Source: Gemmatimonadota bacterium (GTDB lineage Bacteria; Gemmatimonadota; Gemmatimonadetes; Gemmatimonadales; GWC2-71-9). Taken from it: a stretch of 64,000 nucleotides of DNA. The notes under the pieces are model-generated. The model saw nothing but the letters and a program-made list of their open reading frames with translations, ran no database searches and was not told the DNA's origin. Positions 1,518 through 23,402 of this stretch are shown in pieces (the stretch's first letter is position 1; each line of letters begins with the position of its first letter). The position numbers and the translations under genes were made by a program. The stretch covers positions 63,129 through 127,128 of the forward strand of contig JAZDCZ010000251.1 of the NCBI GenBank assembly GCA_036679605.1, read 5' to 3'.

Positions 1518-4500
1518 TCCCTGGTGGCGGTAGGTGTGGGCGGCACAGTAATGTCCTTCCTCTACCGTGCAGCGTTCCGTGAGCAACGTGCGCGACTGAC
1601 TGATACGGCCCATGGCCGGGCGCACATGATGGAAGCCATAGCGCGGTTCGATTCGGCCTATGGTGACAACTATCCCGGGGGATTCTACGAGGCCACCCTT
1701 TCCCAAGTAAGAGCAGCCCACGAGGAGTTTGAGGGCTTCGGAAACACAGGAGAACTCGCCGTCGCCCGGCGCGAGGGCGACCTGATCGTCTTCGTCTTGC
1801 GGCACCGGCACGCAGGGAAAGGCATGCTCGACGATACCCTTCCCTTCTTCGGGGAACGGGCCGAGCCGATGCGCCGCGCGCTGAGCGGCCGGTCGGGCAC
1901 TGTCATCGGCATCGACTACCGGGGAGAGCGAGTGCTCGCTGCCTACGAACCAGTGACCATGCTCGATCTCGGCGTAGTCGCAAAGATCGATCTTGCCGAA
2001 GTGCGGGCACCGTTCGTCCGGGCCGGGCTGTTGGGTGCCGGGGGCAGCCTCATCTTGATCGTGCTCGGAATCGGGATATTCCGGCGAGTAGCGAATCCGT
2101 TGCTGCGAGAGGTCGACGCAAACGCAAGACGATATCGCGGACTGTTCGAGAATGCTCCCGTCTCGATATGGGAAGAGGATTTTTTCCAAGTCAAAACCTA
2201 CCTAGACGATCTCGGATTCTTCGAGATAGAAGACGTCGAGTCCTATTTGGATGACCACCCGGATGTTGTACGGCAGTGCGCGCAACGGGTTACGGTCCTG
2301 GCCGTCAACCGGCGTGCTGCTGAACTGCACGAAGCTGACAACGCAGCGGAGTTGCTGAAGGAACTGTCGAGGATTACCGAAGTAAGCTACGTGGCGTTCA
2401 GGCGGGAGTTGGTGGCGATGTGGCGCGGCGACACCGAGTGCGAAGTCGAGGGGCAAGTAATAACCTTGAAGGGTTCGTTGCGTGACGTCATCGTCAAGTG
2501 GTCGATCGTGCCCGGTCACGAGGAGGACTTATCCCGGATCTTGGTTTCGCTGCTCGATGTGACCGACCGCAAGCGATCCGAAGAGGCACTCAGGGAGGGC
2601 GAGAAGCGACTGAGCCTCACACTGGATGCCGTAAGCGACGGCGCATGGGATTGGAATGTCGCGACGGGCGAAGTGCGCTACAGTGACCGTTGGGTGGAGT
2701 CACTGGGGTACCGGCCAGAGGAAGTCGAACCGCACGAGAGTTTCTGGCGGAGTCTCATCCATCCGGATGATGTACCGAAGGTTGACGAAGCGCTCATGGA
2801 GCACTTTGACGGTCGTACCGATTACTACGAATGCGAAAACCGCCTTCGCATGAAATCGGGCGAGTACCGGGATAACCTAGACAGGGGGAAAGTTATCTCC
2901 CGTGACGCCCAGGGAAGACCGCTCCGAATGGTGGGCACGGATACCGACATCACCGAGCGGCGGAAGGCAGAGAATGCCCTACGGACAAGCGAGAGCCGCT
3001 ATCGCTTGCTGTTCCAAGATTCGCGCGACGCCATCTTCATAACCTCCGTGGACGGCCGGTTTGCCGACGTGAACGACGCAGGCCTTGACCTGCTGCGCTA
3101 CTCTCGTGATGAGTTCGCCGATATCCGCGTTGCCGACATATCCGACGATCTCGACGGCATGCGACAGTTCCAGCACGCAGTCGACAAGGTAGGCTTCGTG
3201 AAAGACTACCTGGCCCTTGTGCGACGCAAGGACGGAGTCGTGCTCGACTGTCTGCTCACGTCGACGGCGCGGCGCGCAGCAGACGGCACAGTGATCGGAT
3301 ACCAGACCATCGCTCGGGACGACACCCAACGCAGGCGGATGGAGAACGAGTTGCGGCGATCCCGCAACGAACTCTACATTCGGAATCGGATCTCACACGT
3401 GTTCCTGACCGAAGCCGGCGACGAGTTGTTTGGAGAGCTGCTTGACGTCTTGATCGGTGCTACGGAGAGCGAGTTCGGGTTCCTGGGCTACATCGATGAG
3501 GACGGCGCTTTGGTCTGTGCCTCGATGAGGCAGCGAACTTGGACCAAGCGGCAAATGGAACAGAAGGTCATGGTGGTCCCGCCGTCGAGCTGGGAGGGTA
3601 TCTGGGGACAATCTCTCCGCGAGTGCAGAACCATTTGGTCGAACGATTCGCTGAAAATGCCTGAGTTTCAACTGCAGTTGAACGCCGCGATCGCCGTCCC
3701 GATTGTGCACGGTAAGAAATTGATTGGCCAATTCGTATTGGCAAACAAGCCGGCCGGCTACGACGCGAGAGACGGAGAGTTCTTGGACACCCTTGCAGAA
3801 TACATCTTCCCACTTCTCGAGTCGAAGCTCACCGCCGAGCGCACCAGAAAGTTCAGTGAGCAGGCGTGGGCCACGGTGCGAGGTGTTCGCGACCGGCTGC
3901 AACTGAGCATAGATCGTATGCCGATCGCTTACATCCTGTGGGATGAATCAACCAAGGTCACGGTATGGAATCCAGCGGCCGCACGGATCTTCGGCTACAC
4001 CAACGAGGAAGCAGTGGGACGATCGCTGCTCGATCTAGTCGTTCCGGATTCCATCCGGCTAGACGTCGCCAACGTAATGCAAGCGCTCTTGGGGGGTGAA
4101 GAAGCATCGTACTCGGAACCCAACAACAATGTGTGCAAGGATGGAACGGTGATCTCCTGCCAGTGGTACAACACGCCAATCAAGCTAGGAGACCAAGAGA
4201 CATCGCTAGTCCTTTCCATGGTGCTGGACGTCACCAAACAGGTGGAGGGCGAAAAGACCCTGCGTCTCAACTCGGCCGCATTAGAGGCCGCAGCGAACGC
4301 CATAGTGATTACCGACGAAGAGGGCGCCATTCAGTGGACCAATTCCGCCTTCGAGCGCTGTACAGGCTACAATCAAGAGGAAGTTGCCGGCAGGAATCCG
4401 CGGTTTCTCAAGTCTGGAAGACAAGGCAGAGCATTCTACATCGACTTGTGGGATACCATACTCGACGGGCGAACCTGGCACGGCGAGATGACAAACAAAC

Positions 4501-5279
4501 GCAAGAATGGAACCCTCTACACTGAGGAGCAGTCCATCACTCCGATGAGTAGCGGCGGCGAGATCACTCATTTCATCAGCATCAGACAAGACATCACCGA
4601 GCGCAAGCGACTGGAGCAGGAGGTTCTCGAGATTGATGAACGGGAGCGGCAGAGTATCGGTCAAGACCTCCACGACATGCTGGGCCAGCAGCTGACGGGT
4701 ATGGGCCTGATGCTCCAGGCGTTGCGGGGAAACGCGGCGCGGCAGGAGGCGGTGGATTCGGACGTGGTCAGTAAACTTCAAGATCTCGTGAAGACTGCCG
4801 CTGTCCACACGCGCTTCGTCTCGCGGGGCCTGTTGAAGCTCACACCTGGGAGGAGCGGCTTGATAGATGCCTTGGAGGACTTGGCATCGACAGCGGAGAA
4901 ACTCTTCGACATCACTTGTGACATACGGATCACCGATAACGTCGAGATCTCTGACTCGACGGTCACCCGGCACGTCTATCACATCGCCCAGGAAGCGGTG
5001 ACCAACGCCGTGCGTCACGGGAGAGCCGCCAGCGTGGTAATCGCACTCAGACTCCACGAAGATAAGACCGTGATGAGCGTGAGCGACGACGGCTGTGGTA
5101 TTCCTGACAATCTGCCTTCAGATAAGGGACTTGGACTCAGCACCATGCGCTATCGCGCACACGCCATAGGTGGCTCGTTGGAGGTTAGGCGCGGCGAGGA
5201 ATCCGGCACTGTTGTGCGTTGCACGTTACCGCGAATGAGCGACCCTGGCCAGGATCAGAGCACATATCTCGATGGTTGA
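1467..5279 (+). CDS. Membrane sensor histidine kinase: Cache-like domain, multiple PAS, GAF, HisKA_3/HATPase
   Basis: Two TM segments, DYRGERVLAAYEP Cache-like motif, repeated PAS ends (DVTDRK, DITER), H-box IGQDLHDMLGQ, QEAVTNAVRHG, DDGCG, GLGL. Confidence 0.92.
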   Translation: MTSMHIRDRMSVLVVVMSLVAVGVGGTVMSFLYRAAFREQRARLTDTAHGRAHMMEAIARFDSAYGDNYPGGFYEATLSQVRAAHEEFEGFGNTGELAVARREGDLIVFVLRHRHAGKGMLDDTLPFFGERAEPMRRALSGRSGTVIGIDYRGERVLAAYEPVTMLDLGVVAKIDLAEVRAPFVRAGLLGAGGSLILIVLGIGIFRRVANPLLREVDANARRYRGLFENAPVSIWEEDFFQVKTYLDDLGFFEIEDVESYLDDHPDVVRQCAQRVTVLAVNRRAAELHEADNAAELLKELSRITEVSYVAFRRELVAMWRGDTECEVEGQVITLKGSLRDVIVKWSIVPGHEEDLSRILVSLLDVTDRKRSEEALREGEKRLSLTLDAVSDGAWDWNVATGEVRYSDRWVESLGYRPEEVEPHESFWRSLIHPDDVPKVDEALMEHFDGRTDYYECENRLRMKSGEYRDNLDRGKVISRDAQGRPLRMVGTDTDITERRKAENALRTSESRYRLLFQDSRDAIFITSVDGRFADVNDAGLDLLRYSRDEFADIRVADISDDLDGMRQFQHAVDKVGFVKDYLALVRRKDGVVLDCLLTSTARRAADGTVIGYQTIARDDTQRRRMENELRRSRNELYIRNRISHVFLTEAGDELFGELLDVLIGATESEFGFLGYIDEDGALVCASMRQRTWTKRQMEQKVMVVPPSSWEGIWGQSLRECRTIWSNDSLKMPEFQLQLNAAIAVPIVHGKKLIGQFVLANKPAGYDARDGEFLDTLAEYIFPLLESKLTAERTRKFSEQAWATVRGVRDRLQLSIDRMPIAYILWDESTKVTVWNPAAARIFGYTNEEAVGRSLLDLVVPDSIRLDVANVMQALLGGEEASYSEPNNNVCKDGTVISCQWYNTPIKLGDQETSLVLSMVLDVTKQVEGEKTLRLNSAALEAAANAIVITDEEGAIQWTNSAFERCTGYNQEEVAGRNPRFLKSGRQGRAFYIDLWDTILDGRTWHGEMTNKRKNGTLYTEEQSITPMSSGGEITHFISIRQDITERKRLEQEVLEIDERERQSIGQDLHDMLGQQLTGMGLMLQALRGNAARQEAVDSDVVSKLQDLVKTAAVHTRFVSRGLLKLTPGRSGLIDALEDLASTAEKLFDITCDIRITDNVEISDSTVTRHVYHIAQEAVTNAVRHGRAASVVIALRLHEDKTVMSVSDDGCGIPDNLPSDKGLGLSTMRYRAHAIGGSLEVRRGEESGTVVRCTLPRMSDPGQDQSTYLDG

Positions 5280-5949
5280 GCGCAAGGTGCAAGACGGCCC
5301 CTCCAGGGTCCTTCTGGTGGACGATCACGCAGTGGTGCGGCACGGCCTGGCGCTCTTGATCAATAATGAACGCGATCTGACGGTCTGCGGTGAGGCAAGC
5401 GATGCGGGCAGCGCTCTCAAGACCGCCGAGAAGCTTCAGCCGGACCTGGTCGTCGTCGACATAGCGCTCGGTGACACCGACGGCATCGAGTTAATCAAGC
5501 AGATGCACGCGCGTTGGCCCACCACAAGGGTGCTGGCCCTTTCGATGCACAGCGAAAACCTCTACGCGGAACGTGCTCTCCAGGCAGGGGCGAATGGATA
5601 CCTGATGAAGGAGGAAGCCCCTCAGGAATTCCTCAGGGCGCTGCGGCAGATCTTGTCAGGCGAGGTATTCGTCAGCCGACAGCTCGAAAAGCGCTGGCTG
5701 CAGCGCATGCGTAGTGGATCGCATAACTTGGATCGCACGCCGGTCGAGACGTTGTCCGATCGTGAGCTGGCGGTGCTGCAGCTCATAGGCGACGGTCACC
5801 CGAGCCGCGAGATCGCAGAATCGCTGCACTTGAGCATCAAGACGGTCCAATCACATCAGGAGCACATCAAACAGAAGCTGGAATTGGCCAACGCGACCGA
5901 ACTGGTGCGATTCGCCACGCTCTGGGTCCACCGGGAAAGTGGTGGCTAG
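5272..5949 (+). CDS. NarL/LuxR family response regulator
   Basis: LVDDHAVVR receiver plus LSDRELAVL...IAESLHLSIKTV HTH; overlaps the kinase stop. Confidence 0.95.
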   Translation: MVERKVQDGPSRVLLVDDHAVVRHGLALLINNERDLTVCGEASDAGSALKTAEKLQPDLVVVDIALGDTDGIELIKQMHARWPTTRVLALSMHSENLYAERALQAGANGYLMKEEAPQEFLRALRQILSGEVFVSRQLEKRWLQRMRSGSHNLDRTPVETLSDRELAVLQLIGDGHPSREIAESLHLSIKTVQSHQEHIKQKLELANATELVRFATLWVHRESGG

Positions 5950-6703: not shown

Positions 6704-7168
6704 ATGAAAAAAGCGCAGTTCAAGATCCTCGTTGTCGATGATTCGAACCTGGTTCGCGGTCTCTTGAGCGATATGCTGAGCGAATTGGACGGTGTCTGTA
6801 CCGTTCACCGCGCCGCAGATGCTAAAGAAGGTCTGGAGCTGGTATCCCAGCTCGAACCTGACTTGGTTACCCTGGATATCAGGCTGCCGGGCGAGACCGG
6901 CGTAGACCTGCTGGCAAAGATCAAGGCGCAGAAGGACCCTCCGGAAGTCGTGATGCTGACCAACTATCCCTTTTCCACGTACCGCAAGGTCTGCGCCGAG
7001 CTTGGGGCGGATCATTTCCTCGACAAGACGACGGAACTGCACAAGCTGCTCGAAGTAGTGAGAAGTGCCATCGCAAGAGAAGTAGTGAAAAATGCCATCG
7101 CAAAAAAAGGCAACGGCGCGCGGCCCAACTCTTGTTTCGACCCGCCGGACAACGAACGCAGAGAGTGA
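6704..7168 (+). CDS. Single-domain response regulator
   Basis: ILVVDD...LDIRLPGETG...MLT...FLDK. Confidence 0.9.
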   Translation: MKKAQFKILVVDDSNLVRGLLSDMLSELDGVCTVHRAADAKEGLELVSQLEPDLVTLDIRLPGETGVDLLAKIKAQKDPPEVVMLTNYPFSTYRKVCAELGADHFLDKTTELHKLLEVVRSAIAREVVKNAIAKKGNGARPNSCFDPPDNERRE

Positions 7169-7614: not shown

Positions 7615-10600
7615 ATGACCGAGAAGCTCCGGATCTTGATTCTCGAGGACGTTGCCGACGACGCCGAATTGCAGGAACGGGAACTTCAGAAGGCGGGAAT
7701 CGAGTTCATTTCAAAGTGCGTGGAGACTCGCGAAGACTTCCTTGCCGCACTCGAAGACTTCGTCCCCGATATCATTCTGTGTGACTATATGCTGCCGACT
7801 ATTGACGGCATGATGGCGCTCAAGCTGATACGAAAGCACTCTCCTAACGTGCCTGTCATCATCGTAACTGGCTCGATGAACGAAGAGACAGCGGTCGAGT
7901 GCCTCAAGGCCGGCGCCGCGGATTACGTGATCAAAGATCATCTCGTGCGCTTGACACTGGCTGTGAAGAACGCACTGAACAAACAGCTGCAACGCGAAAT
8001 CAAGCAGCGAGCCTTCCGAGCCCTGCGGGAAAGCGAGGAGAGGCACCGATCGCTTACCGAAGCGATCCCCGACATGATCCTACTGGTTGACCGCGAAGGC
8101 ACATATCTCGAATACAAACCTTCGGATGACTTCGCGCCTACAGTACCGGCCGAAACGTTCTTAGGCAGAAAGATCTCCGACGTGATGCCAAAGGACGTGA
8201 CCCGAGCGTCGATCGAGGCCATCCGTCAGGCTCTGGCAACCGAAACCCTTCAAACTTTCGAGTATGAGCTTGTCAAGGAAGGTCAGTTGCATTACTTCGA
8301 GGCCCGAGCAGCACCCAATGCGCAAGGCGAAGTCTCGCTGGTGATACGTGACATCACCGAACGCAAAGAGGCCGAAGAGATCGTCGAACGCATGGCGCTG
8401 CGGCAACAGCTGATTCTGAACTCGGCGGGACAGGGAATTGTCGGAGTCGACCGCGACGGCAACATGACATCCATCAACCCGGCGGCCGCAAGCACGCTCG
8501 GTGGTACCATCTCCGGTCTGCTCGGAAGGCCGCTGCAGCCGCGGGAGCGTGACTCGGGCCCCAATGACAGGGCCTGCTCGGACTACTCGAGTACTGTAGA
8601 TCAGACACTCGTCGATGGGCTCCCCCGCGAGGCCGACGCCATTTTTCAGAAACTCGACGGGAGCAGTTTCCCCGTCCGGTTAGTGTGTACAGCCATTGGT
8701 AACGACCGTCAAATCGACGGGGCGGTCGTTGTATTCGAGGACATCAGTGAGAAGAAGCAGCGAGAGGAAACGCTATCGCTACAGGGTGCCGCCCTCGAAG
8801 CCGCCGCAAACAGCATTGTCATCACAGATCCCCAGGGAGTTATCCAATGGGTGAACTTGGCGTTTACCAAACTAACGGGCTACACGGCCGAGGAGGCCAT
8901 CGGACAGAATCCACGCATCCTCCAATCTGAGAGACAGGAGCGGTCGTTCTACACGGAACTGTGGGACACGATTCGCGCCGGCCGCACATGGCGCGGCGAA
9001 CTCATCAACAAGCGCAAGAACGGAAGTCTGTACACCGAGGAGATGACAATCACGCCCGTGCCCGATTCGAGCGGCAACATATCGCATTTCGTCGCGATCA
9101 AGCAGGACATCACGGAGCGGAAGGCATCGGATGAGACCTTGCGCAAATCCGAGGAGAGTTTCCGCAACCTCGTGCAGCACGCCACATACGGAATCTACCG
9201 GTCGTCACCGGATGGCAGGTTCCTCTCCGTCAACCCTGCCCTGGTCGAGATGCTGGGGTATCGGTCGGAAGAGGACCTTCTCTCCATCGACATGAATAAA
9301 GACTTGTACGCCGATCGAGGAATGAGGCAAACGCTGATCGAAGAGTTCGAGCTGAGCAAGCTAGTGGACGGGGTAGAGACCCCGTGGCTGAGACGGGACG
9401 GGAACCCGCTCATGGTGCGGCTCAGCGGGCGCCCCGTCAACTCCTCCAACGGCAATCTGGAGTGCTTCGAGATGATCGTGGAGAACGTGACGGCGCGGAG
9501 CAAACTCGAAACGCAGCTCAGACAGGCGCAGAAGATGGAGGCAATCGGAAATCTCACTAGTGGGCTCGCACACGACTTCAACAACCTGCTCTCGGTGATC
9601 ATCGCCAACACAGAACTCCTCACCGAGTCACTCACCCGTGAAGATCTCCGATTTCTCGCAAAGGACATCTCGACGGCAGCAGATGCCGGAGCGCACATGG
9701 TGAGGCAGCTCCTCGGGTTCAGCCGTATAGCAGTGCTCGAGATGCACACCATAAACTTGGGCAAAGTCGTCGCCGATACGTCGTCAATGCTCAAGCGACT
9801 GATTCCCTCAAACATTGTCATCGATGTCACAGCGGATGAGAAGTTGAGGGCAGTCCGCGCCGATGCGGTATTGGTCGAGCAGATCATCCTCAACCTCGCA
9901 ACCAACGCGCGCGACGCCATGCCTGACGGTGGAAACCTGTCCATCGAAGTCCGGGAAACGATCGTTAAGGACGATCGGCAGCCATTCCCCTGGTTCGTGC
10001 CGGGAGAGTACGTGCGGGTCGCGGTAAGGGACACGGGCGAAGGGATGGACGAAGCGACGCGTTCCAAGATCTTCGAGCCGTTCTTCACGACAAAGCCAAA
10101 GGGCTCCGGCACCGGACTTGGAATGGCCATGGTATACGGTCTGATGAAACAGCAGGGGGGCTACATTCTGGTTGAGAGCGAACCCGGTATTGGTACTACC
10201 CGAAGAGCATTGTCAGGTGAGCGCAGAGCCCAAACGGTTGCACGGTGGCGAGACGGTACTCTACGCGGAAGATCAGGATGCTCTGCTACGAACCGGGACG
10301 CTGGTGCTCGAGCGCAATGGCTACACTGTCATCTCTGCTGCAAACGGCCGAGAGGCGATAGAGCAATTCCGCGAACATCAGTCAGAGATAGACATCGTAC
10401 TTTGCGATATGGTAATGCCCGAAATGGGAGGCGCCGAAGTATTTCGAGTCGTGAGGGAGATCGCCGAGGACATACCCTTCCTGATGGTGACCGGCTACGC
10501 GCAAACTGAGGCAGAAGATGCCATGGGAGGCAATGTTCACGTGCCAACGCTGTCGAAGCCATGGACGATCGACGAACTGCTTCATGCGGTGCGGCGCGAA

Positions 10601-10624
10601 CTGGAGGGAGTAGTAAGGCGGTAG
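7615..10624 (+). pseudogene. Hybrid histidine kinase (REC, 4 PAS, HisKA, HATPase, REC), frameshifted near 10200
   Basis: ORF 7615-10509 is kinase-like up to ESEPGIGTT. The C-terminal REC (GETVLYAEDQ...KPW) lies in another frame (10172-10624). The intact paralog at 23389-26154 shows the missing linker. Confidence 0.8.
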
Positions 10625-10708: not shown

Positions 10709-11602
10709 ATGGCGAAACGAAAGACAGCGAAGAAGACCGCAGGAACCCGTACTGTGGCAGATATCCTCGTGTTGCGCCAGGACGAGTTGTTGGTTGATTG
10801 GCTGGAGAACATCAAGACGCTGGTCGGGACACGCACATTCGAACTGATGACCGAGGAGCAACTGCGCACCCAGGCAAAGGGTCTGCTGGCAACGCTGACG
10901 ACGGCTTTTGGCGCAGAGCAGTACGTTGACATCGAGACGCCGGAGTTCGCCGACTCGGTGGCCATGCTGCGCGACATCAGCGTCGCCCGCGCCAAACAGG
11001 ACTTCACTCCCTCCGAGACGGCGGTCTTCGTCTTCTCGCTCAAGGACGCCCTGCTAAAGTTCCTCCATGAGGAGTTGGGCGATCAGCCGCAGCTGCTCAA
11101 CGACGAGATCACAAAGGTGAACAAGGTGATCGACAGTCTCGGACTGATCACCTTTGAAGCCTTCGCTCTGACGCGCGAGAACATCATCGCCGAACAGAGC
11201 CGGTCGCTGATGGAACTCTCTACGCCGGTGATGAAGCTGTGGGACGAGATCGTGATGCTGCCCCTGGTCGGTGTGATCGACACTCCGCGCGCCGCGCAGG
11301 TGATCGAGGTGCTGCTCAGGACCATCGTCGAGACAGAGTCGCGCGTGGCAATCATGGACGTCCTCGGCGTGCCGGTCATCGACACGAAAGTGGCGCAACA
11401 CCTGATGAAAACCGTGACGGCGGCGCAGATGCTCGGCTGCGAGGTCATCCTGACCGGCATCAGTCCCGACGCAGCGCAAACGCTGACTAAACTCGACATT
11501 CAGTTCGCAGGCCTGCGTACCCGGGGCGCACTGCGTGCCGGCATTGCCGAGGCATTCAGACTGGTCGGCCTCGAGGTCGTCGTGAAAGGAGACCGACCAT
11601 GA
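10709..11602 (+). CDS. rsbR: Stressosome protein RsbR (N-terminal sensor plus STAS)
   Basis: [35 protein letters not shown]; both conserved phospho-Thr positions present; AAGGAG RBS. Confidence 0.93.
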
Positions 11603-11964
11603 GAGTCGCCGTACTTAGGCTGCACGGCATCCTCCTAACCTCGATCCAGGGCGATCTGAGCGACGAGGACGCCATGGACTTCCAGGCCGACGTGTTGCGT
11701 GAGCTGAGCAGCACCGAGGCCAGGGGGCTGGTCATCGATATCACGGCGATGGACGTGGTCGACTCGTTCATGGCGCGGGTGATCAACGAAACGGCGATAC
11801 AGGCGAGGATGCTCGGGGCGCAGGTCATCCTGTGCGGCATGCAGCCCGACGTGGCCCTGACGCTGATCGAGATGGGGCGGGAACTCATCGGCGTCGAAAC
11901 GGCGCTCAACCTCGATCAGGCCTTCAACCGTCTAGAGGAGATGATCGAAGAGCGGGAGGTCTGA
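11599..11964 (+). CDS. rsbS: Stressosome STAS protein RsbS
   Basis: [19 protein letters not shown] (phospho-Ser motif), [14 protein letters not shown]. Confidence 0.93.
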
Positions 11965-11965
11965 T

Positions 11966-12367
11966 ATGACGCACAAACAGCTAGAACTGAAGCAGTCGAG
12001 CGACATCGTAACCGCCCGCCAAACCTGCCGGGAGATGGCAGACGAACTCGGCTTCGGCTCGGCCGACCAGACCCGCCTGGCCACAGCCGTCTCGGAACTG
12101 GCGCGCAACGCGATCCAATACGCTGGTGAGGGCGTGTGCGTCGTCACCGACGAGTCGGGCAATGAGAACGCCGTCATCCGCGTGGTGGTCGAGGACCACG
12201 GCCCCGGTATCACCGACGTGGACAAGGCGCTCGAGTTGGGCTTCACGACGGGCGGCGGTCTGGGCGCGGGCCTGCCGGGTGCCAAGCGGCTGGCGCATGT
12301 TTTTGCACTCGCGTCCGAGCCGGGGCACACGGTCGTGCAACTGAAGATGAGGAGGAAGAAGACCTAG
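11966..12367 (+). CDS. rsbT: RsbT-like Ser/Thr kinase, copy 1
   Basis: DIVTARQ..GF..DQTRLATAVSELARNAIQYAGEG..DHGPGI..GLGAGLPGAKRL. Confidence 0.92.
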   Translation: MTHKQLELKQSSDIVTARQTCREMADELGFGSADQTRLATAVSELARNAIQYAGEGVCVVTDESGNENAVIRVVVEDHGPGITDVDKALELGFTTGGGLGAGLPGAKRLAHVFALASEPGHTVVQLKMRRKKT

Positions 12368-12398
12368 GCAATGCAGAATGTAAAATGAGAAGTGCACA

Positions 12399-12815
12399 AT
12401 GAGGGATGAGCAGGGCGTGGTAGTTACGGTCACGGAGGAGTGGCACGTTGCGAAGGCGCAGCGGGCTGCTAAGGCGCTGGCGCGGTCGGTGGGGTTGTCG
12501 CAAGTGGCGGTGTACAGCATCGCTACGTCGGTGTCGGAACTGGCCAACAACCTGTTCTTCCATACTCGCGACGGTGGGATCATCACGCTGAGGGCGGTGA
12601 GGCACAATGGGAGCGTTGGCGTCGAGGTCGTGGCGCAAGATGACAGCCCGGGCATTGTCGACATCGACCTGGCCATGAACGACGGCTTCACGACCAACGG
12701 CGGACTCGGCGGCGGGCTACCAGGCGTCGAGCGGCTGATGGACGAGTTCGAGATCGAATCGCAAGTCGGCACCGGCACGCGGGTGGTCGCCAGAAAGTGG
12801 GAGCGATGCAAGTAG
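12399..12815 (+). CDS. rsbT: RsbT-like Ser/Thr kinase, copy 2
   Basis: IATSVSELANNL..DDSPGI..GLGGGLPGVERLMDEFEIES..GTRVVARKW. Confidence 0.88.
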   Translation: MRDEQGVVVTVTEEWHVAKAQRAAKALARSVGLSQVAVYSIATSVSELANNLFFHTRDGGIITLRAVRHNGSVGVEVVAQDDSPGIVDIDLAMNDGFTTNGGLGGGLPGVERLMDEFEIESQVGTGTRVVARKWERCK

Positions 12816-13378
12816 CCATCGTCAAACGCCCATTGGAAGAGCCGCATTGTGGCGACCAGGCTGGACGCTGGGAGTACAATGGCAAGGTTGTGCTCTGCAT
12901 GATCGACGGTCTGGGACATGGCAAGGGAGCGGAAGAGGCGGCGCTGGCAGCGCTGGACTTCGTCGCGCGCCATCACCACGAGCTGCTGCTGGAGGTCTTC
13001 GCCACCTGCGACAAGGCGCTGCGCAACACACGCGGCGTAGCCATGGGCATCGTCGTGGCCGACTCGGACGCCCGGACGCTGACGTATGCCGGCATCGGCA
13101 ACACCCGGGCGATAGTCGTGGGACAGGAAACGACGCGCCTGTCCAGCCACTACGGCATTGTCGGCGGCGGCTACCGAACGCTCAAGACCGAGACGGTGCC
13201 GTTGACGCCGGACGATTTGGTGATCATGTACACCGACGGCATCGAGGAGTTGATCGACCTGTCGGACTACGACGAAACGCTGCGCTCCGACGTCCGCTGT
13301 CTGGCCGAGACGATTCTCGAGGACTGGCGCCGGGAGACGGACGACACGGCGGTCCTGGTGTTTCGGAACGGAGGCTAG
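12806..13378 (+). CDS. SpoIIE/PP2C phosphatase (RsbX-like)
   Basis: CGD, IDGLGHG, GIGN, MYTDGI and DDTAVLV PPM motifs; follows the rsbT genes. Confidence 0.88.
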   Translation: MQVAIVKRPLEEPHCGDQAGRWEYNGKVVLCMIDGLGHGKGAEEAALAALDFVARHHHELLLEVFATCDKALRNTRGVAMGIVVADSDARTLTYAGIGNTRAIVVGQETTRLSSHYGIVGGGYRTLKTETVPLTPDDLVIMYTDGIEELIDLSDYDETLRSDVRCLAETILEDWRRETDDTAVLVFRNGG

Positions 13379-13379
13379 G

Positions 13380-14432
13380 GTGCCTGCACAGGACTTCAAG
13401 AACGCATACGCTTCGGTGCTCAGGGCCTTTGTCGCGAGCTGGGAAGAGCAACACCTGGCCGAGGCGGCCGAACTGGGGCGCAAGATGGTGCGTGCCGGCG
13501 TGCCCCCCGAAAAGATTGCCGAGATTCACGAAGAAGCGATCCAGCGCCTCGCCAAGGAGTATCCTGACACGACGCTGCTCGAGTCCGCCCAGCGCATTTC
13601 GGCCCCGCTGATGGAGCTGCTTATGGCCTACGGCCTCGCCTTCCGCGAACGAGAGGCCCTGCGCAAGCTGGCGGAGCGGGAGATCCGTGAACTGAATCTC
13701 GGTCTCGAGCGGCGCGTGGACGAACGGACGGCACAACTGGCAACCACCAACAGAGAACTGAAGACATTCACCTATTCGGTCTCACATGACCTGAAGGCTC
13801 CTTTGCGGGCAATAGACGGATTCTGTGCTATGCTCACGAACGGTCACTCCGAGCACCTCGACGCCGAAGGTTTGCGCATTCTCGATGTCATTCGGCAAAA
13901 CGCTCAGAAAATGGGACAGCTAATTGACGACCTGTTGACGTTGTCTCGAGTCGGCGAGCGCGAGGTGCAGCTTGATGAGATCGACATGGCAGAGCTGGCT
14001 AGAACCGTGTTCGACGAGCTGCGATCGGAGAAATCTGAGCGCTCCATCCGATTGGAGCTGGGACAACTGCCATCAATTCGAGGCGACCGTACGATGATGC
14101 GCCAGGCGTTTTCCAACCTAATCGACAATGCAATCAAGTTCACCGGTCCAAGAGACGAGGCAATTATTGAAATCGGTTGCAAGACGGACGGCGAGGAGAA
14201 CATCTTCTATGTGAAGGACAATGGCGTCGGTTTCGACATGAAGTATGTCGACAAGCTGTTTGGAGTATTTGAGCGTCTACACCATGCCGACGAGTTCCTG
14301 GGCACCGGGGTGGGATTGGCAATAGTGCAGCGTGCGATCGGCCGGCACGGGGGGCGGGTGTGGGCCGAGGGCAAGTTGGACGAGGGGGCAACGGTTTACA
14401 TCAGCCTGCCACCCCTAAAGATTCCTTCATAA
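13380..14432 (+). CDS. Histidine kinase with RsbU N-terminal-like input domain
   Basis: N-terminus ...VPPEKIAEIH...LMELLMAYGLAFRE resembles RsbU_N. Then coiled coil, YSVSHDLKAPLR H-box, NAIKF, DNGVGF, GTGVGL. Confidence 0.88.
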   Translation: MPAQDFKNAYASVLRAFVASWEEQHLAEAAELGRKMVRAGVPPEKIAEIHEEAIQRLAKEYPDTTLLESAQRISAPLMELLMAYGLAFREREALRKLAEREIRELNLGLERRVDERTAQLATTNRELKTFTYSVSHDLKAPLRAIDGFCAMLTNGHSEHLDAEGLRILDVIRQNAQKMGQLIDDLLTLSRVGEREVQLDEIDMAELARTVFDELRSEKSERSIRLELGQLPSIRGDRTMMRQAFSNLIDNAIKFTGPRDEAIIEIGCKTDGEENIFYVKDNGVGFDMKYVDKLFGVFERLHHADEFLGTGVGLAIVQRAIGRHGGRVWAEGKLDEGATVYISLPPLKIPS

Positions 14433-14678
14433 ACTCCTTAGTAAACCTTTCCAGTCACTGCTTAAACTATTGAGACTAGGTCACTTCTGTTGCGAGACAG
14501 TCGGTCTCAAACATCCGCCACAGAAGGCAGAGGAACCCGGACATATCAAACATGGTTTCATGAAATGAGCAGTATGCACGTTCGGGACAGCATGTCCGTG
14601 CCAATCGTCGTCATGCGGAGGGTTCGGTACACACTTCTCCGACTCTGCCCGGGAAAACAACGAGTCCCATGCATCTGA
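14416..14678 (+). pseudogene. Second copy of the 1316-1517 upstream region with a relic N-terminus of the first kinase
   Basis: ATG 14565 gives MSSMHVRDSMSVPIVVM versus MTSMHIRDRMSVLVVVM at 1467, then stops at 14678. Confidence 0.65.
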
Positions 14679-17600
14679 GAAGTTCGCCGTTTGTCGTAGC
14701 CTTTGGGCTGATCGCCGGTCTGTTGCTCGTCGTTGGCGTGTGGACCGCTCGGACCTCGGCTAATGATGCCCTCATCCTAAATCTGGCTGGACGGCAGCGG
14801 ATGCTATCGCAGAGGATCACCAGCGGATACCTCAGTGCCGTGCTGCGAGGCGCAGATCCCACATCGATTGCCGATCTCGAATCCCTGGCAAGGGAGTTTG
14901 AGCAAGGACTTGGAGCGCTCACTGATGGTGGCTCGGTCGCTTACGGTGACAGTGTCGTCTCGTTGCCGGCGCAGACCGACTCGGTCTTCCGCGCAGCCCT
15001 GAACGAAGTGCAGGCAAGTTGGGAGGAGATGCGCGGTGCATCCACAGACTTTGTCGCCCGGCAGGTTGGTGGGCCGGGGCTCGACCGGGCACTGGCTAAC
15101 TTGGAGGAAACGTCCCTTACAACACTCAACAGAATGGACCTCGCTGTCCGCATGTTCCAGGCAGCCGCCGACACCAGGACAAGGCGTTCTTTCCGCGTTC
15201 AAGTCGGCTTGGCGCTGCTGGCCTCACTGGCGCTTGCCATGGGATTCCTCGGGGCGAAGCACACCAAGCTTCTGAAGGTACAGTTGGCAAGAGAGCGAGC
15301 CGAGGCGGAGCTCGGGGAAAGTGAGTCACGGCTGGCCAAACGATTGGCGGAGTTAGAACAGGTCTACGGGACCGCCCCAGTCGGACTGTGCTTCCTGGAC
15401 ACAAACCTGCGATACGTTCGAGTCAACGATCGGTTGGCCGAGATCAACGGACTGCCGGCCTCGGAGCACATTGGTCGAACTCTACAACAGATCCTCCCGG
15501 ACGTGGCTAGCGACGTTGAACCGGTTTATCGGCAAGTGATCGCAAGTGGCGAGCCGGTTGTGGACTCGGAGGTTCACTGTACGACTCCCGCCGATCCGAA
15601 CGTCGAACGCGACTGGCTCACGAGCTACTTCCCCGTCAAGGACGAAGGCGTTGTGGTGGGCGTGACGACCGTTGTCCAGGAAATCACCGAAATCAAGCTG
15701 TCGAGGAATAGGCTGCGAGAGAGTGAGCAACGCTTTCGCGACCTATTCCAGAATGCTCCCTTCTCGATCTGGGAGGAAGATTTTTCCCAAGTCAAGACCT
15801 ACCTGGACGATCTCGGATTCTTCCAGATTGAAGACGTTGAGTCCTATTTGGACGAACACCCCGAGGTTGTGCGACAGTGCGCGCAAAAAGTGAAGGTGCT
15901 GGCCGTCAACCGACGGGCTGCCGAACTACACGAAGCTGAAGACGAAGCGGAATTGCTGAAGGAACTCCCCAGGACATTCACCGAAGCGAGCTACACGGCG
16001 TTCAAGCAGGAGTTGGTGGCCATAGGGCGGGGAGAAACCGCGTGTGACGGAGAGGGGGAGGTAGCAACACTGAAGGGCACAACGCGTGACGTCGTGGTAA
16101 GGTGGTCGGTCGTACCCGGTCACGAGAAGGATCTCGGGCGAGTTCTGGTTTCGCTGCTCGATGTGACCGACCGGAAGCTGGCCGAACGGGAACTGCGCCG
16201 CAACGAGATCATTGTCGCGAGTTCCTCAGATATGCTTGCGCTGTTGGACAAGAAATACACCTACCTTGCCGCTAACCCGGCGTACCTGAAGGCATTCGGG
16301 ATGACCCACGACCAACTAGTCGGGCATACGGTGCCTGAGGTGTTCGGAGAGGAGTTCTTCAATGGCGTCATAAGGCGCAATGCCGACCAGTGTCTGGACG
16401 GTGCGACAGTTCGCTACCAAGAGTGGTTTGATTTCCCTGCCTCAGAGAAAAGGTATATGGACATCAACTACCGTCCCTATCTTGGCCTTGGCAAGGATGT
16501 CAGGGGTATCGTTGTCAACGCGCGGGATATCACCGATCAAAAGAGAGCCCAGGACTCAGCTCTTGAGAACCAGAAGCTCATGGAAGAAACTCAAGAGGTG
16601 GCCCGCCTCGGTAGCTACGCGCTCGACATACCCTCCGGTACGTGGGGATGCTCTACGGCACTCTTCGACATTTTTGGGATCGACGACAGCTTCGATCGAA
16701 CCGTGAAAGGCTGGCTCACGTTGGTGCATCCCGACGACCGGCAGGTGATGCACGATTACTTGAATACAGAGGTTCTGGAGAATCGTGGCCGCTTCGACAA
16801 GGAATACAGAATTGTACGCTACAACGACGGCCACGAGTGTTGGGTTCACGGTCTCGGCGAGTTGGAGTATGACGAGAGGGGTGAGCCTGCGAGAATGATA
16901 GGCACCATCCAGGATGTCACCGCACGAGTGCGAGTAGACCGCAAACTCAAGGAAAGCGAACAGCGATTCCGCACACTTGCTGCTTCATCTCCGGTCGGAA
17001 TCTTTCTGGACGACGCTCAGGGAAAAGCGATATTTGTTAATGACGAATGCGCCCGATTGGTGGGTTTGTCGCCTGAGGAGTGTCTGGGGAGCGACTGGGT
17101 AGCCTCCATCCACCCGGACGACCGCGAGCGGGTCGTGAAGCGGTGGCAAAAGAGCATTGAGGAAGGAAGCGTCTTCGAGCAAGAACACCGCTGGCTCCAC
17201 AAAGACGGGCAGGTGAACTGGACGTTGGCTATGGCTGCTCCTGTCAAAGATGAAGCCGGCCACCTGTCGCATTTCGTCGGAACGCTAGTGGATCTCACCG
17301 AGCGCAAGCGGGCCGAGAAAAAGCTCCGACTACGGGAGCAACAGCTAGGCCTCATCTACGATTCGACAGCAGAGATCCTCTTTCACCTAGGTGTCGAGGG
17401 TGGGCTGCATTACAGATTCCTCACGGTGAACAGCGCTTTTCTCAAAGCCACCGGCCTGACCGCAGAAGAGGTTGTCGGGAAAACAATCGACGAAGTAATA
17501 CCAGAATCGTCGCTGAAATTGGTACGCTCCAACTACGAAAAGGCCGTGAGGGAAGGAAGAATCGTGTCCTGGGAAGAAAGCTCAGAGTATCCGACCGGAC

Positions 17601-19590
17601 CGAGAACGGGCATCGTGAGCATAGCACCAATCTTCGATGAGAGTGGTAACTGCACATACCTGGTAGGATCGGTACACGACATCACCGATCAAAAGAAATC
17701 CCAGACCACGCTCGAAGTGGTTCACTCCCAGCTTCGCCTCAGCATCGATCGAATGCCCATTGCCTACATACTGTGGGACACCGAGGGCAAAGTGTTGGAA
17801 TGGAATCCCGCTGCCGAGACGATCTTTGGATTCACCCACGAGGAAGCTGTTGGGCAGTCCTTCGCCGACCTAGTCGTGCCGGCTGAGGCCCGGCCCGCAG
17901 TTGATGAAGTATTACAAGCCCTCCTGACTGGGACGGAGGCTTCCTACAGTGAGCCGAGCAACAATGTCCGCAAGAATGGCACGGTCATTTCTTGCCAGTG
18001 GTTCAATACGCCCATCACAGACGACGAAGGGAGCGTTACAGCTGTCCTCTCTATGGCTATAGACGTGACTGAACCCCAACAGTCCTTACAACGGCTTCGT
18101 GAAAGCGAGGAACGCTACCGGCTCTTGGTGGAATCGACCGGTGTCGTCCCGTGGACATGCTTGGTTATCCAATTGATGAGTGGTTTGAGGAGAGTTTTTG
18201 GCCAGACCATATTCACCCTGACGATCGAAAGCAAGCGGTTGACTATTGCGTATCATGCACGAATCGAGCAGAGAATCACGAGTTCGAATATCGGATGATT
18301 GCGGCAAATGGTCGCGAGGTATGGATTCACGATGTCGTTTCGGTGATCTCGGATAATGATCGACCAAGCACACTACGCGGCATCATGATAGACATAACCG
18401 ATCAGAGACACGGCGAAGAGGAGAGGAGACGACTGGCAGCAATCGTCGAACGCACCAACGAGTTCATTGCGGTAGCGACACTCAAAGGGAAACTTGTCTA
18501 CGTTAACAAGGCGGGACGAGATCTCGTTGGGCTGGACAAGGACTACGATATTGGCGAGTTGAAGATAGGGCATTTCCTGACCGAAGAAGCGCTACAACAG
18601 TTCTCGGGAATGGAGACGTCGGCGGTCAATCGCGATGGATATTGGAGCGGCGAGACTACTCTGCGGCATTTCAAGACTGGCAACCTCATCCCTGTGATCG
18701 CCAACACGTTCCTGATAAGAGGTGCTGCAGGGAGCCCAATTGCCATGGCCACTGTGCAGCACGATATCACCGATCGCAAGCGCGCGGAGCGCGAGATCCG
18801 TGAACTGAATCTCGGTCTCGAGCAACGCGTGGCCGAGCGTACGGCCGAGCTACGGATGGCAAACAAGGAACTGGAGGCGTTCTCGTACTCAGTCTCGCAC
18901 GACTTGAAGGCTCCTTTGCGAGCCATCGACGGATTCTCGGCGGTGTTAAGCGACGATCACTCCAAACAGCTCAACGCGGAAGGCCGACATGTCTTGGCCG
19001 TCATTCGGCAAAACACTCAGCAGATGGGACAGCTAATCGACGACTTGCTCACGTTCTCGCGCGTCGGTCGGAGCGATATGCAGTCTGGTGAGATCGACAT
19101 AGCTGAGCTGGCTGGGACCGTGTTCCAGGAGCTGCGATCGGCGGTACCTGAACGGTCCATCCGGCTGGAGCTGGGACCACTCCCCTCAATTCACGGCGAC
19201 CGTACGATGATACGCCAGGTGTTCGTCAATCTGATCTCGAACGCAATCAAGTTCACGGGACCCAGGGAGCAGGCTGTCGTCGAGATCGGTTGCGAGGCCA
19301 AAGACGGTGAACACATCTTTCATGTCAAGGACAATGGCGTAGGGTTCGACATGCAGTACGTCGACAAGCTATTTGGAGTTTTCCAGCGTTTGCATTATGC
19401 CGATGAGTTCCCGGGCACGGGAGTGGGATTGGCAATAGTGCAGCGTATGATCGGCCGGCACGGGGGGCGGGTGTGGGCCGAGGGTAGGCTGGACGAGGGG
19501 GCGACGGTGTTTTTCGCACTACCATCTGGCGAGGAGACAGCCAATGGAACCGCAGGCCGTGGAGATTCTCCTGGTGGAGGACAATCCTAA
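14669..19590 (+). pseudogene. Large sensor histidine kinase (PilJ/NarX-like periplasmic domain, ~9 PAS, HisKA, HATPase), frameshifted near 18151
   Basis: LNLAGRQRMLSQR P-box-like motif. ORF1 reads ..STGVVPW then loses similarity; ORF2 resumes mid-PAS (DMLGYPIDEW..IHPDDR) and carries SHDLKAPLR. Confidence 0.8.
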
Positions 19591-20005
19591 CGACGTGGAG
19601 CTAACGCTCCGTGCGATGGACAGACACAATCTTGCCAACAAGGTTCAAGTCGTGCGGGATGGATCGGAGGCCCTGGAGTTCGTGTTCCGCACGGGCCAAT
19701 ATACCGAGCGAGCGATCGAAAACGTACCGAAACTGATTTTGCTCGACCTCAAGTTACCCAAGGTGGACGGGCTGGAGGTGTTGCGCAAGCTAAAGGGTGA
19801 CGACAGCACAAAGATTATTCCAGTAGTGGTACTGACCTCATCCCGAGAGGAACGAGACATCGTTGACAGCTACAAACTCGGGGTCAACAGCTATATTGTG
19901 AAGCCCATCGAATTCGGCAAGTTCGTGGAGGCTGTCTCGCAGGTCGGACTGTATTGGCTGCTGATCAACGAACCGCCTCCGGAGTCCAACGGCCACCGCA
20001 AATGA
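19544..20005 (+). CDS. Rcp-like single-domain response regulator
   Basis: [39 protein letters not shown]. Confidence 0.93.
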
Positions 20006-22256: not shown

Positions 22257-23402
22257 ATGGAAACGGTCGCGTCGCGCAGATGGCCGGTCGCGGCAAATGC
22301 GCCCAAGCTCGAGTTCGATCACGGCCGGCCGGTGGACTCGATACAACAGACCATACTGGTGGTCGACGACGACGCTTCCGTCCGTTCTACGGTCTCCGCA
22401 ATCTTGAGGCGCGCGGGATACGAAGTGGCAACGGAAGCAGATGGAGACGGCGCACTCGATGCCGCCCGACGGTTACGCCCTGACCTAGTCCTGCTGGACA
22501 TAGTGATGCCGGGCTGTGACGGCCTGGAGGTATGTCGTCAGCTCAAAGCGGACGTCGAGACTCGCCTCATTCCGGTTGTGTTGCTGTCGGGGCTGTCGGC
22601 TCTGGACGATCGTGTTCACGGGCTCGACGCCGGAGCCGACGATCTCCTCAGCAAACCGTTCGAAACCGTCGAACTACTGGCGCGCGTAAAGTCGCTGCTC
22701 AAACTCAAACGCTACACCGACGATCTCGAGCGTGCCGAATCGGTGCTGGTAACGCTGGCAAGGAGCATCGAAGGGAAAGACCCTTACACCGAAGGCCACT
22801 GCGAGCGCCTGTCTGCATTGGCCACCGAATTGGGCCGGCGGCTGAGGCTCCCGGAGGAAGACCTCACGTCGCTGGATCGCGCCGGCATCGTGCACGATAT
22901 CGGCAAGCTGGCGGTGCCCGACACGATTCTCCTCAAGGAGGGTCCGTTGACGCCGGAAGAGTGGACCATCATACGCAAACACCCCGCCATGGGCGAGCAC
23001 ATTTGTACACCAATTCGAAGCTTTCACCGAGTACTACCCATAATCCGGCATCATCACGAGAAGTTCGATGGCTCGGGATACCCCGACGGATTGAAAGGCA
23101 TCGAGGTTCCGTTGACGGCGCGAGTCCTCCAAGTGGTGGACGTATACGACGCGCTCACAACCAAGCGGACGTACAAACCGGCGTTCCCGCCGCTCGATGC
23201 GTTGGAGACAATGGATGCCGAGGTGAAGATGGGCTGGTGGGACCCCGATGTGTACGCGGAATTCCGTAGGATGATTCTCGACGGTGACAAAGCTGCTTTG
23301 GTCCTGCGGCCCCGAAACCAAGATCGCGACGATCCGCGGCGGCGTTGGAGTCCGTCACCCCGCCCGTGCCCCCCGGAGAAAGCAAACCATGCAGCCTGCT
23401 AA
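22257..23402 (+). CDS. REC-HD-GYP response regulator (cyclic di-nucleotide phosphodiesterase); start uncertain
   Basis: REC followed by KDPYTEGHCER, HDIGK, HHHEKFDGSGYP, VVDVYDALT. Confidence 0.92.
   Translation: METVASRRWPVAANAPKLEFDHGRPVDSIQQTILVVDDDASVRSTVSAILRRAGYEVATEADGDGALDAARRLRPDLVLLDIVMPGCDGLEVCRQLKADVETRLIPVVLLSGLSALDDRVHGLDAGADDLLSKPFETVELLARVKSLLKLKRYTDDLERAESVLVTLARSIEGKDPYTEGHCERLSALATELGRRLRLPEEDLTSLDRAGIVHDIGKLAVPDTILLKEGPLTPEEWTIIRKHPAMGEHICTPIRSFHRVLPIIRHHHEKFDGSGYPDGLKGIEVPLTARVLQVVDVYDALTTKRTYKPAFPPLDALETMDAEVKMGWWDPDVYAEFRRMILDGDKAALVLRPRNQDRDDPRRRWSPSPRPCPPEKANHAAC

Follow-up and report, generated by a model that had tools for sequence, protein, structure and literature searches.

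A stressosome operon probably coupled through an RsbU_N docking domain to a histidine kinase of apparently local origin in a Gemmatimonadota genome

The 64,000-nucleotide stretch of a Gemmatimonadota genome considered here (the window, from contig JAZDCZ010000251.1; all coordinates are window positions) carries an operon of six genes arranged head to tail on the + strand, in the order rsbR-rsbS-rsbT1-rsbT2-rsbX-(RsbU_N-HisKA-HATPase kinase). The operon probably encodes a complete minimal stressosome together with a histidine kinase that it controls, whereby RsbT1 released from the stressosome docks on the RsbU_N dimer of the kinase and switches it through a coiled coil. The wiring of a stressosome to an RsbU_N-kinase is already in print and is not new (Heinz 2022; Baral 2025). 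What is added here is a model-backed choice of RsbT1 as docking partner, a division of features between RsbT1 and RsbT2, and sequence evidence for the swapping of outputs at one junction. The initial annotation of this DNA had given the order rsbR-rsbS-rsbT-rsbT-PP2C followed by a kinase that starts 1 nucleotide after the PP2C stop; the open reading frames (ORFs) and Pfam assignments bear out this order, its coordinates and the spacing (13378 to 13380), and the kinase peptides it quoted are present in the translation. The features concerned are listed below; GC3 denotes the G+C fraction at third codon positions and pLDDT the predicted local distance difference test score.

10709..11602, + strand: RsbR, with an N-terminal RsbRD_N domain (non-haem globin type) and a STAS domain (Pfam PF14361, E 5e-21, and PF01740; alignment to 7b0u/9o4r)
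11599..11964, + strand: RsbS, a single STAS domain (Pfam STAS; 40.5% identity to Listeria RsbS over 116 amino acids)
11966..12367, + strand: RsbT1, switch kinase with HATPase_c_2, predicted RsbU_N docking partner (Pfam; conserved columns; complex model)
12399..12815, + strand: RsbT2, a second RsbT-like GHKL protein with HATPase_c_2, in a separate clade (Pfam; tree; conserved columns)
12809..13378, + strand: RsbX-like stand-alone PP2C phosphatase, SpoIIE domain only (Pfam SpoIIE, E 1e-10; tblastn with Listeria RsbX, E 1e-8)
13380..14432, + strand: RsbU_N-histidine kinase of 350 residues (Pfam RsbU_N 9-87, HisKA 127-192, HATPase_c 235-345)
13380..13661, + strand: RsbU_N docking domain, kinase residues 1-94 (Pfam PF08673; PDB 2j6z; model pLDDT 94.7; GC3 0.78)
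13662..14432, + strand: coiled-coil linker, HisKA (H136) and HATPase_c (motifs; 74% amino acid identity to the neighbouring transmitter; GC3 0.67)
18775..19590, + strand: transmitter of the neighbouring PAS kinase (ORF 18151-19590), identified by likeness to the putatively grafted kinase half
19544..20005, + strand: single-domain receiver that begins inside the last part of the sister kinase ORF (Pfam Response_reg only)

Identification of the kinase N-terminus as an RsbU_N domain, as the initial annotation had proposed, is upheld by profile and structure-sequence searches. Pfam RsbU_N matches at E 1.5e-12 and 47.9 bits against a cut-off of 25.5, covering profile positions 2-75 of 75, and in a search of the genome it is the sole RsbU_N match, at 51.1 bits; the same residues match the solved N-terminal domain of Bacillus subtilis RsbU (2j6z, E 9.3e-9). 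The claim that this domain is the only input region is likewise sustained, no other input domain being found in a Pfam scan of the kinase. An AlphaFold2 model of residues 1-125, built from 42 sequences, contains four helices, three of them short and the fourth unbroken from residue 66 to 124. Fold comparison is less discriminating: a Foldseek search with the single-chain model ranks RsbU_N (1w53) at the top, but weakly (E 0.072), and VIA-align scores RsbU_N at Z 7.4-7.5 (root-mean-square deviation 3.5, 68 residues aligned), a range common for helical bundles, while the KaiA C-terminal domain reaches Z 9.5, such that the folds of RsbU_N and KaiA-like bundles are not separated. Residues E23, E44 and E79 of the domain are invariant in 42 of 42 relatives.

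The genes upstream supply the rest of the system. One operon holds RsbR with an N-terminal domain and STAS, RsbS, RsbT and a stand-alone PP2C, and so constitutes a minimal rsbRSTX module. T192 and T226 of RsbR align with T175 and T209 of Listeria RsbR, and S56 of RsbS occupies the position of the serine targeted by RsbT; T175, T209 and S56 are the phosphorylation sites of the Listeria proteins (PMC12154155). The PP2C is called RsbX-like because its only domain is SpoIIE; metal-binding motifs are present, and the phosphatase likely resets the stressosome. In the kinase, HisKA and HATPase_c both exceed their Pfam cut-offs and the H, N, G1 and G2 boxes are intact (H136, and positions 246, 280 and 308, respectively). 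The C-terminal part is therefore that of a histidine kinase rather than PP2C/SpoIIE, and the protein is not an RsbU by definition. The absence of rsbV, rsbW and sigB, noted earlier from the sequence, agrees with tblastn searches at E 1e-3 in which Listeria RsbV, RsbW and SigB had no match on the window's contig, only R, S, T and X being matched there. A scan for promoters and terminators gave nothing above chance, with 0 promoter-like sites and 3 terminator-like sites against 2.7 expected.

Modelling of two RsbT1 chains with two copies of kinase residues 1-125 returned a complex score of 0.80 (0.80, 0.80 and 0.79 over the runs), compared with 0.00 for the best of three controls. Of 157 solved complexes 116 attain the mark set for this score, as do 2 of 215 mismatched pairs, counts that are only approximate here given the use of own alignments and a 2:2 job. 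The runs share at least 78% of contacts, with a partner pLDDT of at least 84. Within the predicted interface lie kinase E23, A27, M78 and M82 and RsbT1 R18 and R22, which map by alignment to RsbU E24, Y28, I74 and I78 and to RsbT R19 and R23, the binding residues in Bacillus (PMC12143880); the changes at M78 and M82 are conservative. A sequence search of the PDB found no RsbT structure, and the pass is thus less likely to derive from a solved similar complex. The complex model supports docking of RsbT1 on the Bacillus-mapped surface of RsbU_N. Beyond the docking surface, the distance from Y84 to the phospho-accepting histidine in direct RsbU_N-kinase fusions often differs by multiples of seven within a kinase subtype (27, 34 and 41; 36 and 43; 45, 52 and 87; with exceptions such as 48), a spacing in keeping with signal transmission along an unbroken coiled coil, though it could alternatively have been inherited from the donor kinases.

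The initial annotation had spoken of RsbT docking in general, with either RsbT as a candidate. The model upholds docking for RsbT1, and the sequence evidence favours RsbT1 alone, not both proteins. RsbT1 keeps the RsbU-binding arginines R18 and R22 (R18 in 44 of 44 T1 sequences, R22 in 43 of 44) together with the ATP motif residues E44, N48, D77, G79 and G81, whereas RsbT2 has Q21 and K25 in place of the arginines that mark an RsbT. In a tree of 79 sequences, limited to non-identical rows of at least 80 bits that cover about 105 residues or more, 35 T2 rows fall on one side of a branch with support of 92 in the Shimodaira-Hasegawa-like approximate likelihood ratio test (SH-aLRT). Over the 17 positions of the predicted interface, 86% of T1 cells carry the T1 consensus residue, against 48% of T2 cells; the window's RsbT1 agrees with Listeria RsbT at 13 of the 17 and its RsbT2 at 7, and T36 and R37, invariant in T1, occur in 0 of 35 T2 sequences. 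In residues 8-56, T1 also resembles Listeria RsbT more closely than T2 does, with mean identities of 0.51 and 0.31, respectively. Thus RsbT2 is likely not the docking partner. Its associations lie instead with the phosphatase: the RsbT2 stop overlaps the RsbX start by 7 nucleotides in the window, the two genes overlap likewise in 7 of the 9 relatives examined for this, and a SpoIIE domain is attached to 8 of 10 longer T2 relatives. RsbT2 most likely represents a split-off RsbT-like head of the reset phosphatase RsbX. The window copy alone among 35 T2 sequences has a Gly to Ser change at residue 83, in the DxG ATP motif, and this G83S change may lower ATP binding in that copy. The open-access literature yielded no relevant paper on a second RsbT, the older studies of Pane-Farre 2005 and Hardwick 2007 lying outside that scope.

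The same arrangement recurs widely. Alignment scans with the RsbU_N domain gathered 35 genome loci and 54 metagenome loci, labelled as Chloroflexota, Planctomycetota, Nitrospiraceae, Proteobacteria, Desulfobacteraceae, Poribacteria, Fidelibacterota and methanogenic archaea. Upstream DNA of 3 kb or more is available for 42 loci, near-copies kept; RsbT1 lies upstream in 38 of these, RsbX in 37, the R, S and T1 set in 32 and T2 in 22, and T2 is never present without T1. In most related loci, then, the domain follows a stressosome; a survey of RsbU_N-HisKA fusions next to rsbRST had been suggested in the initial annotation. Outputs were scanned in 38 of 70 distinct RsbU_N frames and comprise 31 histidine kinases of several classes, 3 GGDEF proteins (one with EAL), 2 HD proteins, 1 sigma-54 activator and 1 frame without a second domain, with no PP2C/SpoIIE output among the 38; LuxR-type fusions make up 2 of 43 in a protein search. 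Input domains vary too, since 12 scanned RsbR proteins divide into 5 with RsbRD_N, 5 with PAS and 2 with no named input domain. Four loci of methanogenic archaea carry the cassette (L011, L016, L055 and L005), and in L011 and L016 it consists of a PAS-input RsbR, a single T1 and an RsbU_N-kinase output. Two loci have tandem RsbU_N fusions after one stressosome, a kinase and a cut-off second gene in L020 (2781-6556) and a GGDEF protein and a GAF-kinase in L087 (5983-9055), and one RsbT may feed two outputs in these cases.

Several observations weigh against control of the kinase by docked RsbT1. The Y28 equivalent is Ala in this kinase and in 23 of 42 relatives, and Y28I abolishes RsbT binding in B. 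subtilis (PMC12143880). The contact between RsbT D92 and RsbU R91, required for RsbU activation in Bacillus (PMC12143880), is not conserved: RsbT1 has Leu at the D92 place, both equivalents are kept in only 5 of 42 T1/RsbU_N pairs, and residue 95 (R95, the equivalent of R91) falls outside the confident predicted interface. The complex tool also passes close cousins of true partners (10 of 12 colicin pairs), and the preference for T1 over T2 as partner rests on sequence comparison. No rsb gene was detected upstream at 3 of the 42 RsbU_N-fusion loci, and for the cognate receiver the window offers three or more similar candidates, the choice between them being a guess. Finally, the action of Moorella RsbT on a cyclase that carries RsbU_N is a phosphorylation (as cited in PMC4976288). 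With respect to the first of these points, natural counterparts in the domain of the RsbU Y28I suppressors K53E and T89A were considered and rejected: the window's kinase does have E52 and A93, but only 16 and 5 of 42 relatives, respectively, share them.

The Moorella precedent, in which RsbT regulates the downstream cyclase by phosphorylation (PMC4976288), suggests another scheme, namely that RsbT1 docks but governs the kinase by Ser/Thr phosphorylation or inhibition and not by ordering the linker. RsbT1 retains all ATP-binding motifs, the Bacillus linker salt bridge is absent here, and S74 lies in the predicted interface and is kept in 37 of 42 relatives; S74 may, however, serve helix packing and lacks the Asp-x-x-Asp-Ser or Asp-Thr context of the RsbS and RsbR sites, while in B. 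subtilis the surface corresponding to the predicted interface works through binding. This scheme is considered unlikely. A need for RsbT2, or for a T1/T2 pair in which T1 binds the helical bundle and T2 gives the linker contact, is improbable, despite a D92 equivalent that is kept in the window's RsbT2 and in 31 of 35 T2 sequences (16 of 44 in T1), the retention of R95 by the kinase, the clade-wide conservation of T2 ATP motifs, and the greater likeness that T2, compared with T1, shows to Listeria RsbT over residues 57-76 and 112-136. RsbT2 is missing at 16 of 38 T1-bearing loci, its residues are bulky or changed at the tightest predicted contacts (those of T36 and R37 in T1), and gene overlap and fusions tie it to RsbX. 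Comparison of single-T with double-T loci lends no support to T2 supplying the missing D92 contact, D92 being kept by T1 in 7 of 15 and 8 of 27, respectively (Fisher p 0.33, not significant).

It is also conceivable that the fusion is an uncoupled by-product of recombination, in which RsbU_N merely dimerises a constitutive or silent kinase. The chimera-like gene, the loss of the Y28 equivalent and the apparent splitting of the nearby sister kinase gene by a frameshift are in keeping with such an origin, but the frame is intact with its catalytic motifs kept, the docking residues are invariant across relatives, 31 of 38 scanned RsbU_N fusions are histidine kinases, and the differences between the window's two related transmitters, counted by codon position as 46/29/90, fall mostly at third positions, an excess expected under selection. 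A by-product is thus very improbable.

In the favoured reading, that of an RsbT1-switched kinase, RsbT1 would phosphorylate RsbS and RsbR and then be released, as in the Bacillus RsbU system; the freed protein would dock on the RsbU_N dimer in the predicted 2:2 complex, and docking would order the linker, such that the kinase is switched on, not inhibited, through the continuous coiled coil. Both the control of kinase activity by RsbT1 and its direction are inferred by analogy with Bacillus RsbU, as is the resetting of the stressosome by RsbX. No receiver gene follows the RsbU_N-kinase, and phosphate would probably pass to the single-domain receiver at 19544. The H-box helices of the RsbU_N-kinase and the neighbour kinase are nearly identical, and the neighbour kinase overlaps this receiver, suggesting that both kinases feed it. 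A sigma-54 activator follows the receiver, and similar receivers lie at 7132 (58% identical) and 21733. The kinase-receiver type presumably resembles Cph1/Rcp1 pairs.

The kinase gene itself looks like a chimera, in which an imported R-S-T1-T2-X-RsbU_N segment is joined to a duplicated local transmitter. Kinase residues 95-344 are 74% identical in amino acid sequence to the kinase of ORF 18151-19590, about 5 kb downstream, and 79% identical in nucleotide sequence over 737 base pairs, while the next best kinase in the genome reaches about 31% and the best among fetched relatives 55%; the transmitter of that ORF is likely the donor or a sister of the grafted half. Base composition changes at the same boundary, GC3 being 0.78-0.87 from rsbR to RsbU_N and 0.67 in the kinase half, with a genome median of 0.65 and 95th percentile of 0.76 over 2535 long open frames, some of which may be false. 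Four loci labelled Nitrospiraceae, Dehalococcoidia and Planctomycetaceae share 66-89% identity with the Rsb proteins and RsbU_N, but against nine stressosome loci of the window's own family the identity of the Rsb proteins is only 28-52%. Of 301 genomes of the phylum, 2 carry RsbU_N, counting the present one, and 0 of 125 further members of the family do, whereas RsbT has a match in 44 of 200 genomes of that family. The second RsbU_N match of this phylum sample (L097, G012:C17, 7820-9025) scores weakly, at 26.8 bits, and stands at the head of a histidine kinase; the frames around it show no evident rsb genes. In seven genomes of the family (G304, G391, G254, G183, G330, G321 and G380) a second RsbT-like match lies in frames of 485-749 amino acids about 1.4 kb after rsbT, and the family's own stressosomes seem to use this match in long frames, rather than RsbU_N, as coupling.

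The junction can be placed closely. DNA likeness to relatives stops at 13647-13682 in 9 of 9 compared, and likeness to the neighbour kinase starts at 13662. At this point the kinase reads R-K-L-A-E-R-E-I and the neighbour R-K-R-A-E-R-E-I, just past its last PAS domain, so that RsbU_N occupies a former PAS position; a similar junction motif is present in 32 of 92 RsbU_N proteins. Among relatives, outputs swap past the end of RsbU_N between kinase, HD, GGDEF, sigma-54 activator and LuxR types. Two loci under the same genome label, L004 and L009, agree at 92% identity for the 1.9 kb that precede this junction and then diverge, L009 continuing into an HD domain and L004 being 95% alike with L003, a PAS/HisKA_3 kinase. 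Only 61 of 96 four-fold sites are still identical between the window's two transmitters, and the duplication is thus not fresh. An assembly artefact in the form of a collapsed repeat was considered and is unlikely, since in run X1 the kinase halves lie without differences on separate contigs and their DNA has diverged by 21%; run X1 may equal the source sample, and among the matches listed no piece bridges the RsbU_N-kinase junction. The cassette would thus have arrived by horizontal transfer and replaced the PAS input of a duplicated local kinase at a shared PAS-exit linker; both which way it travelled and how it was joined to the kinase are deduced from sequence.

From these observations a more general, and more tentative, picture can be drawn, to which we give slightly less than an even chance. 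R-S-T1-(T2)-X-RsbU_N would be a portable plug-in sensor that moves between bacterial phyla and methanogenic archaea, with recombination at the coiled-coil linker past RsbU_N, a linker similar to the one found after PAS domains, capturing a host kinase, cyclase, phosphodiesterase or transcription factor; T1 would dock on the output and T2 would serve the reset phosphatase. The window would then hold one such graft, with its donor kinase 5 kb away.

Related systems have been described. RsbU_N domains at the N-terminus of signalling proteins downstream of rsbX were reported in Proteobacteria and taken as RsbT targets (Heinz et al. 2022, PMC9237108), and an AlphaFold2 dimer model of a gammaproteobacterial RsbU_N-histidine kinase has been presented (Baral et al. 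2025, PMC12143880). In the passages of PMC9237108 and PMC12143880 that deal with it, the RsbU_N-kinase as RsbT target stands as a proposal without experimental test for a kinase, the Moorella cyclase being cited as the tested case (PMC9237108). The present kinase shares with these published examples its position directly after rsbRSTX and its proposed role as RsbT target. It differs in that the published kinases are proteobacterial and the RsbR of Heinz et al. has a sensor globin, as far as those accounts describe them, while here RsbR has RsbRD_N, two RsbT genes are present, relatives extend to Chloroflexota, Planctomycetota, methanogenic archaea and others, and the kinase half derives, it appears, from a neighbouring gene. 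The Moorella thermoacetica protein MtG (RsbU_N-GAF-GGDEF; Quin et al. 2012, as cited in PMC12143880 and PMC4976288) is the one tested non-sigma RsbU_N output in those accounts; relatives here too carry GGDEF outputs, but MtG ends in a diguanylate cyclase and its control is reported to involve phosphorylation by RsbT.

With the RsbT-RsbU systems of B. subtilis and Listeria the operon has in common RsbU_N, the RsbR and RsbS phospho-sites, the T1 equivalents of R19 and R23, the kinase equivalents of RsbU E24 and R91, and the predicted interface, whereas the output is HisKA-HATPase and not PP2C, Y28 is Ala, T1 lacks D92 and rsbX precedes the output gene. Compared with the Bacillales sigB operon (rsbRSTUVW-sigB-rsbX), rsbV, rsbW and sigB are absent from the operon. 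The RsbT-like HATPase-SpoIIE fusions that follow rsbT elsewhere (P0044 and P0045) match RsbT2 and RsbX in their two halves, at 55-56% and 40-41% identity, but here the two are separate overlapping genes, and the T2 ATP motifs are kept clade-wide. RsbT itself may sense stress in B. subtilis (PMC11821858), so that RsbR may not be the sole route of input.

To a specialist the basic wiring will be unsurprising; the operon bears on the open question of how stressosomes signal outside the Bacillales. A soluble kinase of 350 residues with RsbU_N as sole input offers a clean test case, with one partner and one read-out, phosphorylation of H136. Baral et al. propose that RsbT-driven linker ordering is exchangeable between enzyme families (PMC12143880), and natural output swaps at one junction would provide a direct test of that idea. 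The T1/T2 pair, moreover, naturally separates surfaces that are combined in the single RsbT of Bacillus.

Elsewhere in the genome, contig C348 (L095, G000:C348) has genes for a STAS protein, an anti-sigma-like HATPase_c_2 protein and a GAF-SpoIIE protein in a row at 3004-5394, among housekeeping-like genes; judged from these sequences, RsbV/RsbW-like partner switching is present in the genome, unlinked to the stressosome operon and without RsbU_N. Around the operon, two large sensor genes appear broken. The upstream hybrid kinase at 7615-10624 is interrupted by a frame change near 10200, where run X1 has 41 extra letters (at 10199/10200) that fit the gap relative to a paralogue at 23284-26154; the break probably reflects letters lost from the window in assembly, or else variation between strains. 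Downstream, a PilJ and multi-PAS frame at 14669-18298 overlaps the PAS-kinase frame 18151-19590 in a different frame, a PAS domain being cut near 18160; a frameshift has probably divided what was a single large sensor kinase over 14669-19590. The run X1 matches listed contain no indel near 18160, a place not included among the pieces shown. The operon as a whole sits inside some 25 kb (1458-26154) made up almost wholly of two-component genes. These include several kinases rich in PAS domains, no fewer than three single-domain receivers that resemble one another (7132, 19544 and 21733), a sigma-54 activator and a receiver that probably carries HD-GYP; repeated segments within this region suggest local domain shuffling.

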